Notes: generated by a model not told the origin, from the sequence alone. Shown: positions 1-5,740, counted from the stretch's first letter. The stretch is 64,000 nucleotides of DNA from Porticoccaceae bacterium (GCA_049615345.1 JBMZFJ010000003.1:22859-86858), one strand, 5' to 3'. A program made the numbers and translations.

Positions 1-115
1 TTATGGCATGAAGCGACATATAGTATCAACCATAAAGCAATGAATGACTTGTTTTAAAAGATTTAGAGGTTTAGCGCTGTAATTAGCGAGAAACTTTCAA
101 GAGAAGATATACAAA

Positions 116-201
116 GTACGACTTTGACCTTCCTTGACACCGTACCCCTCTTAATCCTTGCTAAAGGATTTTTTTAGGACCCTCCCAGGGTCCTTTTTTT
201 T
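116..201 (+). ncRNA. Putative small RNA, tandem unit 1 (5' end uncertain)
   Basis: Non-coding. GTACG/CGTAC stem (116-144), ACCCCTCTT (144-152), hairpin AATCCTT-GCTA-AAGGATT (153-170), then a terminator. No family recognised. Confidence 0.5.
176..201 (+). terminator. Rho-independent terminator
   Basis: AGGACCCT-CCC-AGGGTCCT followed by a T run and GCCT. Confidence 0.85.
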
Positions 202-252
202 GCCTGGACAAAGGTCATAACAAAAAGTAATGACTAATATGCATTAAATGCA

Positions 253-289
253 TTGGATTAATGTTATGCCCGACATTAAAGTGCGCGCC
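253..289 (+). promoter_or_regulatory. Putative sigma70 promoter of sRNA unit 2
   Basis: TTGGAT (253-258), N18, TAAAGT (277-282), then GC-rich discriminator GCGCGCC. Palindrome ATGCATT-A-AATGCAT (239-253) abuts the -35. Confidence 0.45.
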
Positions 290-388
290 ATAGAGAGGTA
301 GCTACCTACTAGCACTCTCTACCCAAACCCCTCTTTGCGAGTTATCCAAAGAATTTATCGGGAGCCTACCCTAGGCTCCCTTTTTTTT
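290..388 (+). ncRNA. Putative small RNA, tandem unit 2 (~100 nt)
   Basis: TAGAGAG/CTCTCTA stem (291-321), ACCCCTCTT (327-335), TCTTTG/CAAAGA stem (332-352), terminator; promoter-like elements directly upstream. Confidence 0.55.
360..388 (+). terminator. Rho-independent terminator
   Basis: GGGAGCCTA-CCC-TAGGCTCCC, then T8 and GCCT. Confidence 0.9.
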
Positions 389-405
389 GCCTAAAATATA
401 ATTCT

Positions 406-819
406 CTATTGAATCTCGTAGCTATGGCTCATGGCAACACCGGCCGCACCGAGCATAATGGAGGCGGAACAATATTTTTCGGCTGATAGGTCAACCGCAC
501 GCTTTACTTGGTTTTCTTTTAGATCATTGCCACTGACTACAAAGTTAATATGAATTTTACTAAATACTGCGGGCACAGCGTCCACACGCTCGGCCTCGAC
601 TTCAGCTCGACAGTCCACAATTTGCTGACGACCTTTCTTCAACATAGCAATAACATCATAGGAAGCGCAGCCACCTAAGCCTAGGAGAAGCATTTCCATA
701 GGGCGCACCCCCATATTTCTGCCTCCCTGTTCTGGCGCACCGTCCATAACAACAGAGTGCCCACTCCCAGACTCTCCCACAAACATTACGCCATCAACCC
801 ACTTTACGACCGCTTTCAT
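406..819 (-). CDS. OsmC/YhfA family protein
   Basis: MKAVVKW...DGAPEQGGRNMGVRPMEMLLLGLGGC...KYCSASIML; likely start ATG 819 (track starts at 861); divergent from crp as in Pseudomonas. Confidence 0.9.
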   Translation of the reverse strand: MKAVVKWVDGVMFVGESGSGHSVVMDGAPEQGGRNMGVRPMEMLLLGLGGCASYDVIAMLKKGRQQIVDCRAEVEAERVDAVPAVFSKIHINFVVSGNDLKENQVKRAVDLSAEKYCSASIMLGAAGVAMSHSYEIQ

Positions 820-975
820 TAAATTAACCTCTGATACTCTAAATTCGTTTAATCCATGCATTTTACCAGTGATTCAGCGCAAGAAGCACTTTTGTTTACT
901 AGTATTAAAATGTAACGCTAGCCAAAAGGCTTTCTCTATTTAATATTTCCAAAACACAAGACTAGGAGATATAGC

Positions 976-1665
976 TTGAGCATCTACCAAAGTTCCTTCC
1001 CTCTTCGAAACATAGGGATTTTTCTCAAATATTGCCGAAAGCGAAGCTATAAAGCGAAAGGCATCATTATTCATTATGGAGATCGAAGTAATTCACTTTA
1101 TTATATTTTGAGCGGATCCGTTGCAGTTGTTGCAGAAGACAGCGATGGCAAAGAAATAACTCTAACATACCTTAACTCTGGTGATTTTGTCGGCGAGATG
1201 GGATTATTTGATGAAAATCCTCGCAGCGCTAGCGTAAGGGCAAAAACAAAATGTGAGATAGCTGAGATAAGTTATGGCAAATTTGTTCCTCTGTGCTTCA
1301 AATATCCAGAATTTATTTTTACCATAGCGCAGCAAATTTCAGCACGCCTTGCACATACCTCACGTAAGGCCACTGACCTTGCTTTTCTCAACGTAAGCGG
1401 TCGAGTCGCAAGAGTGCTTATCGATCTGTGTCATGAGCCCGATGCTCGAAAAAAACCAAATGGAACACATATCCACATTACACGCCAAGAAATAGCAAGA
1501 TTGGCCGGTTGCTCAAGGGAAATGGCTGGAAGGATTTTAAAGAACCTTGAAGCCAAACGGCTTGTTTCACTCTATGGCAAGACAGTAGTTGTACCCAAAA
1601 GCAAGCAAACAACATTGTTCTTGCTCAATAAAATGCTATCTCCACCTAACCAAAAAAATCCTTGA
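976..1665 (+). CDS. crp: cAMP receptor protein CRP/Vfr family regulator (divergent, extended C-terminus)
   Basis: cNMP domain [10 protein letters not shown]...[12 protein letters not shown]; [25 protein letters not shown]; RBS AGGAG; trpC-vfr-osmC synteny. Confidence 0.9.
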
Positions 1666-2446
1666 GCTGCTTGCCTGGATTCTCACTGCGCATAAAGGCT
1701 TCACCTACAAGGAAAGCATGTACATTATTGTCTCTCATTAACTGCACATCATTACCACTGTGAATGCCGCTTTCAGTAATCACAATGCGATTCTGCGGAA
1801 TTTGATCGAGCAATTCAAAGGTATTATCTAACGACACGTCAAAGGTATGCAGGTTTCTATTATTGATCCCCACCATTGGGTTGTCGACGGCAAGAGCGAT
1901 CTCTAGCTCGCGCTGATCATGTACTTCAACCAATACATCTAAGCCTAGAGCCAATGCAGTGGCGTGCAGACTGTATAACTCTTGTGGCTGAAGTGCAGAA
2001 ACAATTAGCAGGACACAATCCGCCCCCATAGCCCGAGATTCATACAGTTGATACTCGTCAATAATAAAGTCTTTTCTAATCACTGGCAGACTACAAGCCG
2101 CCCGAGCATCCACAAGGTACTGATCAGCGCCTTGAAAGAAATCCACATCAGTAAGAACGGACAGACAGGCCGCTCCCCCCTGCTCATAGCTCTTGGCAAT
2201 ATCAACCGGATCAAAATCTTCTCGGATAACTCCCTTACTTGGCGAGGCTTTCTTAATTTCTGCGATCACTGCCGATTCTCCAGCAGAGATTTTTGCCTGC
2301 AGCGCCTTGGCAAAGCCGCGTGGCGCAGAAGCATGCTCTAGCTGTGCTTTTAGCTGCTCAACACTGACTACAGACTTGCGATCGGCAACTTCTTGCGCTT
2401 TTCTGGTCAATATTTTTTTTAATACTGTAGGCGTTTCAATACTCAT
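1646..2446 (-). CDS. trpC: Indole-3-glycerol phosphate synthase
   Basis: [30 protein letters not shown] motifs. Confidence 0.97.
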
Positions 2447-2466
2447 AATCTTCTCTTACAAGCTGT

Positions 2467-3504
2467 TTAGCTATCCGCTTGGGCTTTGGTAAAAGCGGCA
2501 AAATCGCTAATCTTTGCTCTGGCCAATCCAGACACTATGGCATCTTGCGCCATAGCAACACCCTGTTTTAAATCACCAGCACAGCCCGCAACATAGAGCG
2601 CGGCGCCGGAATTAATCGCAATCAGATCAGCTGCTTTCTCGGCATTTTCGCCCTGTTGCTTGCCCAGGGCGTCAGAAATAATATCAAATGATTGTTTTGC
2701 ATCACTCACCGACAGTCCATCTAAACTTTGTCTCTTAGCAAAAAACTCTTCAGGCTTAATAGTATATTCAGTGATGTTGCCGTCTTTAAATTCCGCCACA
2801 TAGGTTTCATCGGCAATACTAATTTCATCAAGTCCATCTGCCGAATTAACCACCATAATATGCTTGGCGCCCAAACGACCAAGCACCTCTGCCATGGGTC
2901 GGCAAAGCGCTTGGTCATAAACGCCTATCAACTGCTGATCAACCCCAGCTGGGTTAGTCATTGGGCCCAGAATATTAAAAATAGTTCTAAGTCCAAGTTC
3001 GCGACGAGGACCTATGGCGTGCTTCATAGCACTGTGATGCGATGGCGCAAACATAAAACCAACACCCAACTGATCAACACATTGGGCAACCTGCTCGGGT
3101 CTGAGACTAAGATTAGCGCCAGCGGCTTCGAGAAGATCAGCCGCACCACTACTGCTGCTAACCGAGCGATTGCCGTGTTTTGCAACTCGCCCACCAGAGG
3201 CAGCGACAACAAAACTCGAGGCGGTAGACACATTAAATAAATTTGATTCATCGCCGCCAGTGCCTACGATATCGACCAAATAATCGCCTGATACCTCAAC
3301 TCCAGTGGCTAATTCCCGCATCACTTCGACTGCACCAGCAATTTCATCAATGCTCTCGCCTTTCATGCGCAAGGCAACAAGAAATGCGCCAATCTGTGCC
3401 TCTGATGCCTGACCTGTCATAATTTGGCGCATCACAGAACGCATCTCAGCCGCCGCCAAATTTTGGTTATTTACCACGCTTTCTAATGCTTGAGTTATGT
3501 TCAC
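2467..3504 (-). CDS. trpD: Anthranilate phosphoribosyltransferase
   Basis: [22 protein letters not shown] motifs. Confidence 0.97.
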
Positions 3505-5564: not shown

Positions 5565-5598
5565 TTTAGATTCCTAGCACTGTGAGCGGATAATTTTC

Positions 5599-5641
5599 GG
5601 GACGTACGTCGCCCCTGGCGATACTATAGGTACCATCGCCA
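5599..5641 (-). promoter_or_regulatory. trpE attenuator-like alternative hairpins
   Basis: TGGCGAT (5616-5622)/ATCGCCA (5635-5641) stem overlaps the Trp codons; competing TCGCC (5609-5613)/GGCGA (5617-5621); no U-tract. Confidence 0.55.
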
Positions 5642-5686
5642 CCGCTGACGGCATTTTGCCTGCTGTGCATAAAGACTCTGCTTCAA
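5624..5686 (-). CDS. trpL: Putative trp leader peptide MKQSLYAQQAKCRQRWRWYL
   Basis: Translated by hand: TTG start, upstream AAGAGGGTGAG SD-like sequence, two TGG codons (RWRW), TAG stop; 59 nt upstream of trpE. Confidence 0.7.
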   Translation of the reverse strand: MKQSLYAQQAKCRQRWRWYL

Positions 5687-5740
5687 AAGCTCACCCTCTT
5701 AATTGACCCTTATTGTAGCCAATAATATGGTGCCCGTAAA

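Follow-up and report, generated by a model that had tools for sequence, protein, structure and literature searches.

Two tandem, putatively LysR-activated small RNA genes with a common anti-Shine-Dalgarno-like seed in a marine Porticoccaceae bacterium

The left end of a 64,000-nt stretch of DNA from a Porticoccaceae bacterium (GCA_049615345.1, JBMZFJ010000003.1:22859-86858; the whole stretch is here called the window) holds two short non-coding units of similar architecture, and we wondered whether these are genuine sRNA genes, what would control them, and on which messages they might act. An earlier note had proposed that they form an undescribed pair of sibling sRNAs. In both units the C/U-rich motif ACCCCTCTT (144-152 in unit 1, 327-335 in unit 2) is accompanied by a second hairpin and by a GC-stem terminator with a CCC loop and a T run followed by GCCT, all of which we found as that note had described. 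These are the only two copies of ACCCCTCTT in 64 kb; 0.33 copies are expected from shuffled sequences, and at least two copies occurred in 4 of 100 shuffles.

The OsmC-family protein encoded next to the units most closely resembles those of two Porticoccaceae genomes labelled HTCC2207 (SAR92 clade), with 92% and 87% identity, and the public runs that contain the stretch are marine or seawater metagenomes. The first position of the window lies within an intergenic region, and the sequence to its left was taken from a contig (L206) that is 99.7% identical to the window across 3 kb and encodes an identical OsmC protein. In the contigs with identical OsmC, L206 included, the leftward neighbour of unit 1 is a minus-strand gene for a 326-aa LysR-family regulator (HTH_1 and LysR_substrate domains), followed further to the left by coq7, a TMEM164-like gene and purD. 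The start codon of lysR is located about 60 nt to the left of the first window position, with transcription directed away from unit 1; the regulator scores far under every NCBIfam equivalog cut-off. Because this upstream gene is divergently transcribed, unit 1 is not the 3' UTR or terminator of an upstream gene, a reading of the first hairpin set against which the earlier note had cautioned. The features of the locus are as follows, with positions counted from the first letter of the window.

1-31, no strand assigned: right half of the divergent lysR/unit 1 promoter region, conserved in all close relatives
19-24, plus strand: unit 1 -10 element TATAGT, within the divergent promoter region
29-24, minus strand: lysR -35 element TTGATA, abutting the unit 1 -10
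about 5-0, minus strand: lysR -10 element CATAAT/CCATAA, at an N17-18 spacer from TTGATA; the lysR promoter is strong by sequence
32-201, plus strand: unit 1 (type A sRNA), predicted transcript of about 170 nt, with its start placed by promoter homology with unit 2 and relatives
144-152, plus strand: unit 1 seed ACCCCUCUU, predicted single-stranded, anti-Shine-Dalgarno-like
153-170, plus strand: unit 1 hairpin 2, AAUCCUU-GCUA-AAGGAUU; relatives have compensatory U-A to G-C changes
176-201, plus strand: unit 1 intrinsic terminator; stem-loop 176-194, CCC loop, T8 at 194-201, then GCCT
214-258, plus strand: unit 2 upstream control region, nearly invariant in close relatives
214-234, plus strand: GTCAT-N11-ATGAC, centred at about -66 of unit 2
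239-253, plus strand: 7-1-7 palindrome/operator ATGCATTAAATGCAT, of the form ATGCA-N5-TGCAT, at about -44 of unit 2
253-258, plus strand: unit 2 -35 element TTGGAT, abutted by the palindrome; 18-nt spacer to the -10
277-282, plus strand: unit 2 -10 element TAAAGT, in almost all close relatives examined; positional homologue of the unit 1 TATAGT, with a GC-rich discriminator next to it
290-388, plus strand: unit 2 (type B sRNA), predicted transcript of about 99 nt, covariance-model match E = 7.5e-5
406-861, minus strand: osmC, OsmC/YhfA-family gene (NF008009, 157 bits), convergent with unit 2; a neighbour, outside the RNA genes
976-1665, plus strand: crp, right of osmC
right of crp, minus strand: trpC-trpD-trpG

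By promoter homology the transcripts would start at A32 (unit 1) and A290 (unit 2). Unit 1 had been given an extent of 116-205 in the earlier note; a start near 32 and an end at 201 are more likely. Its predicted transcript consists of a 5' stem-loop (33-56), a hypervariable but structured spacer (about 57-140) and a conserved 3' module, in which the U-rich linker UUUUUUUA (171-175) separates hairpin 2 from the terminator. In unit 2, a 5' stem-loop (291-321) is followed by ACCCAAACCCC, predicted to be single-stranded and containing the seed, then by hairpin 2 (332-352), the linker AAUUUAUC and a terminator with its stem at 360-380, a CCC loop and T8 at 381-388 before GCCT. Of the 5' hairpins that the earlier note had seen in both units, the stem-loop of unit 2 covaries; the hairpin at 116-143 of unit 1 belongs to the hypervariable stretch and is unconserved in sequence, relatives having other hairpins there. 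The spacer folds well although it is hypervariable. Between five contigs (L201-L205) on one side and the window and L206 on the other, spacer 57-140 is unalignable despite 100% identical OsmC proteins, and the flanking promoter and 3' module are nearly invariant across all of them.

Folding of the plus strand was better than that of shuffled sequences (z = -3.1 for unit 1 and -5.1 for unit 2) and better than that of the minus strand; for the predicted transcript of unit 1 the value was z = -4.3. T runs follow the stems on the plus strand only. Both units have the features of class I Hfq-dependent RNAs, namely a U8 tail after the terminator, U-rich linkers and an internal hairpin, and these are conserved in relatives. 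A hairpin, a U-rich linker and a U8 terminator make up a typical Hfq-binding 3' module, and the two RNAs would accordingly be candidates for Hfq dependence; hfq itself is absent from the 64-kb window. Neither unit of the window contains an ORF of more than 5 codons, so that the mark of a dual-function or 3'-UTR-type RNA, an ORF in the same transcript as the seed, is missing here.

We then considered the promoters. The earlier note had described a sigma70 promoter for unit 2, and the 7-1-7 palindrome, the TTGGAT, the 18-nt spacer, the TAAAGT and the GC-rich discriminator are indeed all present; single-base variants of the -10 were seen in three contigs (TAAAAT in L201 and L203, TACAGT in L204). 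When the upstream regions of all units were aligned in the sRNA orientation, a shared plan was apparent. It begins with GGTCATTAC-like and GCATA elements and an exact ATGCA-N5-TGCAT dyad, continues with a weak -35 (TTGGAT, TTAGAA, TTGAAT or similar) abutting this dyad and a spacer of 17-18 nt, and ends with a good -10 (TATAGT, TATATT or TAAAGT), 7 nt and CCATA(G/A)AG. The ATGCA-N5-TGCAT operator with its -35 and -10 stands before every unit examined in the closer lineages, second and third units included, while in three distant relatives it is partial. Because both units carry homologous promoters, the duplication that the earlier note had suggested, which our comparison supports, took in the promoter as well as the RNA unit. 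A sigma-54 promoter before unit 2, for which there is a TGG...GC stretch, was dismissed, since its spacing does not fit and its '-12' part lacks conservation.

The operator ATGCAAACAATGCAT, read from L206 directly left of window position 1, is common to lysR and unit 1. Here the lysR promoter overlaps the unit 1 promoter, and the predicted start of the lysR transcript falls inside the operator. Overlapping promoters of a lysR gene and its target are the classical arrangement in which a regulator represses its own gene and activates the divergent one. A LysR-type target promoter was defined by conserved dyads between about -75 and -35, one of them a T-N11-A box near -65. Such a box is clear only before unit 2 of the window (214-234); the other units retain ATGCA-N5-TGCAT and GCAT half-sites without a strict T-N11-A box, and the shape of the operator differs there. 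Among the related loci long enough to show it (19 contigs and L206), all except one encode a LysR homologue (67-100% identity) divergently from the first unit, and at 47% identity a LysR flanks the diverged single sRNA of three distant Porticoccaceae. On the strength of this co-conservation, it is most likely that the divergent LysR regulator binds the operators. In one contig (L107:316-800, minus strand) a unit with a partial operator, TATAGT, a 25-aa peptide variant, the seed and a terminator adjoins membrane metallopeptidase-like and alternative-oxidase-like genes. There was no lysR within the 3.2 kb examined around it, and unlinked copies of the module therefore exist.

The family had not been recognised in the earlier note, and database searches agreed with this. 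A permissive scan of window positions 1-3000 with Rfam 15 (4227 models) gave no family at its gathering threshold; the best scores were 21.2 bits against a threshold of 41 for mmgR/suhB (RF00519) and 20.6 against 43 for Burkholderia ncS54 (RF02871), with E values of 0.17-0.8. These sub-threshold alignments rest on the terminator and the C/U-rich stretch, and the units are not members of either family. The OxyS and GcvB models (RF00035, RF00022) had no match to positions 1-3000 even at E values up to 10, a gathering-level scan of the loci of eight relatives gave 0 matches, and a full-text literature search found no paper describing small RNAs of SAR92 or Porticoccaceae.

Homologues were found in 20 related Porticoccaceae loci, comprising two named genomes, both of which carry both units, and 18 metagenome contigs. 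The metagenome contigs were collected with the pattern ACCCCTCTT-N36-52-CCT8, which returned 120 contigs that were mostly chance matches, and the 18 true homologues were separated by BLAST and then by a covariance model (R1) based on five unit 1 sequences that are nearly identical. R1, a model from related genomes of the kind that the earlier note had advised, identified 39 copies in the window and the related loci, plus 2 in another contig (L099). It found 0 copies in about 75 OsmC loci of other Cellvibrionales, Pseudomonas, Marinobacter and methanotrophs, and 0 in about 100 unrelated contigs bearing the seed-plus-T-run pattern by chance, and is therefore specific. The RNA family thus appears to be confined to Porticoccaceae-like genomes. 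The motif CCCCUCUU, usually embedded in CCAAACCCCUCUU, is identical in 27 distinct units, which is so by construction since these units were extracted by requiring the motif; units found solely with the covariance model have C/U-rich seed variants such as CCCCUUCCUUUG and AACUCCUCUU.

The stems of the two units differ in sequence yet pair in both, which had been taken as a sign of structural conservation, and the comparison of relatives supports that view and puts the resemblance well beyond chance. Terminator stems vary by lineage and always pair (GGACCCU/AGGGUCC, GGGACCU/AGGUCCC, GGGGCCC/GGGCCCC, GGAACC/GGUUCC, GGAGUCC/GGACUCC and GGGAGCC/GGCUCCC). In the model-based alignment 95.4% of cells were paired and 12 of 15 pairs had changed on both sides, a result matched by 0 of 500 shuffles. 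This alignment was fitted to R1 and so leans to the model, but a control in which partners were slid by one column lowered pairing to 63-72%, and the raw sequences agree. Over 32 distinct sequences the terminator helix is 99.2% paired, 6 of its 8 pairs having undergone changes on both sides, and several G-U pairs are valid on the plus strand only. MAFFT with RNAalifold on all 27 units gave no structure, the variable linkers having misaligned the stems.

Two types of unit can be distinguished by the hairpin near the seed. In type A (unit 1-like) the hairpin AAUCCUkGCUAwAGGAUU follows the seed, and in type B (unit 2-like) the hairpin, CUCUUUG...CAAAGA or a lineage-specific compensated variant, extends into the 3' end of the seed. 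For 6 type B orthologues, RNAalifold predicted a 5' stem-loop beginning at +2, then an unpaired seed, hairpin 2 and the terminator; both sides had changed in 4 of the pairs. Contig depth in one metagenome run spiked at 1-45, 144-201 and 307-374 and was at background over osmC; co-occurring strains therefore have these cores in common even though their protein genes are more than 10% diverged, and from seed to terminator the units are better conserved among such strains than the neighbouring osmC. RNA-type conservation, the predicted single-stranded seed, the compensatory stems and the G-U pairs and T-tails of the plus strand together support the earlier proposal of an undescribed sibling sRNA pair.

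Unit copy number among lineages ranges from 1 to 3. In three distant relatives a single sRNA gene lies between lysR and osmC, on the minus strand of the loci (L007:3400-3860, from Ca. Reddybacter; L009:3415-3800; L023:1390-1810). The -10 of these single units is TATAGT, less clearly so in L009, and is followed by a 5' stem-loop, CCUAACCCCC(C)UGUA and a terminator; their seed is CCUAACCCCCCUGUA and their terminator stem GGGGAGC...GCUCCCC. They probably represent the ancestral single-copy state. At the other end of the range is a three-unit array (L172:8014-8689, minus strand). A drifted seed, AACUCCUCUUAGUCC or GACACUCUUAGUCC, occurs in a unit downstream of a peptide ORF (recorded for L172 and for L099:1861-2308, plus strand), which shows that the seeds of paralogues are still diversifying. 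Several lineages that retain the tandem units lack osmC at this place (L095, L100, L110, L157 and L172), and OsmC is therefore dispensable for the linkage of lysR and the sRNAs.

In 13 related contigs (about 10 distinct sequences) an ORF of 34-40 aa with a Shine-Dalgarno sequence lies between the start and the seed of one unit.

L105:2900-3040, minus strand: peptide ORF
L149:1822-1945, plus strand: peptide ORF
L137:1768-1890, plus strand: peptide ORF
L099:2070-2183, plus strand: peptide ORF
L172, L110, L095, L100, L157, L090, L192, L086 and L154: other contigs with the peptide ORF

The encoded peptide has the motif MTLVY[IL]..GF.G..GAAIAKDDF..., one predicted membrane helix and no Pfam family. 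Substitutions between lineages number 179, 39 and 421 at codon positions 1, 2 and 3, and because they concentrate at position 3 the ORF is a real small-protein gene. In these sister lineages the sRNA module forms the 3' part of the peptide mRNA, as a dual-function or 3'-UTR form, and the RNA family consequently mixes stand-alone and 3'-UTR/dual-function forms. In the lineage of the window the peptide ORF is absent from this locus (the window, L001, L002, L096, L114, L195 and L201-L206). That the unit 1 spacer might be a decayed remnant of this ORF is speculation only, as the local alignment between the two is not significant (p about 0.15).

Evidence on expression came from assembled Logan contigs of RNA runs, which carry neither strand nor transcript ends. 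The unit 1 core or unit 2 was present in contigs from 5 RNA runs of at least 4 studies, one of these runs being labelled ambiguously (METAGENOMIC RNA-Seq). The contigs cross terminator 1 and the unit 2 promoter, are strandless, have no discrete ends and could derive from DNA carry-over. One of them spans 282 to 529, across the unit 2 terminator and the osmC stop codon. In one run (X27) the depth of the sRNA contig was 10, compared with 3.7 for osmC. This X27 contig ends in an Illumina adapter at about 322/323, after ...CUUUCUAC and just 5' of the unit 2 seed; in this single contig the junction may mark a preferred RNA end or processing site that releases a seed-first short form.

As for targets, the seed-target form AAGAGGGG occurs nowhere else in the window, and when the whole window and 67 translation-initiation regions were scanned for duplexes, no site surpassed the shuffled-seed controls. 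The window encodes a trp leader peptide with tandem Trp codons (M..RQRWRWYL) upstream of trpE (5565-5740, minus strand), and analogous Trp-rich leader ORFs were found in six relatives. The ribosome-binding site of this leader has a 10-nt match to unit 1 in the window. It was rejected as a target: the match is absent in the six relatives, in which the leader peptide itself is conserved, and was put down to a coincidence of Shine-Dalgarno-like sequence.

How else could these observations be explained? The 3' modules might be terminator or stability elements of a LysR-controlled small-protein operon, in which case the window lineage would have lost the peptide and its units would be transcribed relics without a trans role. 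Such a history would fit the coding ORF upstream of the seed in the 13 related contigs, with their roughly 10 distinct sequences, and a unit 1 spacer that is hypervariable even among strains with identical OsmC protein. However, conservation is higher for the seed and hairpin 2 than for the peptide, and both persist in units that never contain the ORF, namely all those of type B and, in several lineages, those of type A. A relic would not be expected to keep the 8-nt single-stranded CCCCUCUU identical in 27 motif-selected units, nor to stay more conserved than osmC, and we regard this explanation as unlikely. The same peptide is short, has one predicted membrane helix and is always encoded inside the same array, which raises the thought that the RNAs are antitoxin-like partners of a small hydrophobic peptide in the style of a type I toxin-antitoxin system. 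By eye, however, the seed has no complementarity to the ribosome-binding regions of the peptide gene, the peptide mRNA bears the same seed module, and the window lineage keeps both RNAs without the peptide at this locus, and we hold such a partnership to be very improbable.

Two further readings concern the position of the units. The terminator of unit 2 ends 18 nt from the osmC stop codon, and the RNA-run contig from 282 to 529 runs across both, as might be expected if unit 2 acted in cis on convergent osmC by 3'-end termination or overlap, that is, by convergent-transcription or antisense control. We consider this very unlikely, in view of the T-tail on the sRNA strand only and of the tandem-unit lineages, named above, from which osmC is missing. 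Least probable of all, it seems, is that we are dealing with REP- or MITE-type intergenic repeats that have no function and contain hairpins by chance. Two similar copies do lie close together and their number varies from 1 to 3 among lineages, but the 64 kb contain only two, each with its own promoter and each placed and oriented in a constant way with respect to lysR; the stems covary, and terminal inverted repeats are lacking.

The explanation that we prefer, and consider likely, is that the window contains two paralogous, LysR-activated genes for Hfq-type base-pairing sRNAs with an anti-Shine-Dalgarno seed, the regulation, the role of Hfq and the targets being the parts that we infer. Each gene has its own promoter, with a good -10 and a weak -35 abutted by the ATGCA-N5-TGCAT operator. 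Each transcript would begin with a 5' stem-loop and continue with the unpaired C/U-rich seed AACCCCUCUU, a hairpin and a U-rich linker, up to a terminator with U8. The LysR regulator would bind the operators, repress its own promoter, which overlaps that of unit 1, and activate both RNA genes upon a signal. With the assistance of Hfq, the RNAs would then pair through their seeds with purine-rich ribosome-binding sites (AAGAGGGG) and lower the translation or stability of the target mRNAs.

This arrangement has counterparts among known systems. In OxyR/OxyS and GcvA/GcvB, an sRNA of the Hfq type with a terminator U-tail is encoded divergently from its controlling LysR-type gene, from overlapping or back-to-back promoters. 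The same divergent layout with overlapping promoters is found here; OxyS and GcvB, however, are single-copy and have other seeds (G/U-rich in GcvB) and other structures. Tandem or multi-copy paralogues with a common seed and regulator that differ elsewhere are familiar from OmrA/OmrB, PrrF1/PrrF2 and Qrr1-4, but the regulators there are OmpR, Fur and LuxO with sigma-54, and there is no sequence or covariance-model similarity to our units. The sister-lineage form, in which one transcript carries a translated small ORF and, 3' of it, the seed-hairpin-terminator module, resembles SgrS/SgrT, AzuCR, CpxQ and DapZ, whereas the two units of the window are ORF-free and offer a single hint of processing, the junction at about 322/323. 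In the Alphaproteobacteria, VtlR, a LysR-type regulator encoded beside the tandem AbcR1/AbcR2, directly activates an sRNA and a small-protein gene (PMC7486931). The AbcR1/AbcR2-VtlR/LsrB systems share with the present locus tandem homologous sRNAs beside a LysR-type gene and C/U-rich anti-Shine-Dalgarno seeds. They differ in that the host here is a gammaproteobacterial member of the Porticoccaceae and its units have no Rfam match that would place them in AbcR (alpha-r15). Moreover, lysR is here divergent from the sRNAs, with overlapping promoters and an operator at both units, and one paralogue in sister lineages fuses a peptide gene and an sRNA module in a single transcript. By this comparison, VtlR with AbcR1/AbcR2, OxyR with OxyS and GcvA with GcvB are the closest analogues, and the units belong to none of these families.

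More tentatively, and with rather less confidence than we have in the sRNA assignment itself, the locus could be seen as a lineage-specific cassette in which one LysR sensor drives one to three copies of the module, both as stand-alone RNAs and as the 3' end of a peptide mRNA. It would be a dual-output circuit, with a peptide and anti-Shine-Dalgarno riboregulators, that duplicates, swaps parts and loses its coding part between close strains. The mechanism itself is familiar; the RNA family is new to Rfam. SAR92/Porticoccaceae are among the most abundant coastal heterotrophic bacteria, and the locus provides in them a testable riboregulator family with a candidate dedicated LysR sensor, a clear operator and a seed that is invariant among the motif-selected units. 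With the covariance model R1 this family could be annotated in marine genomes and its expression followed in metatranscriptomes, and the natural variants, with one, two or three copies and with or without the peptide gene, show the rise and decay of sibling and dual-function RNAs.
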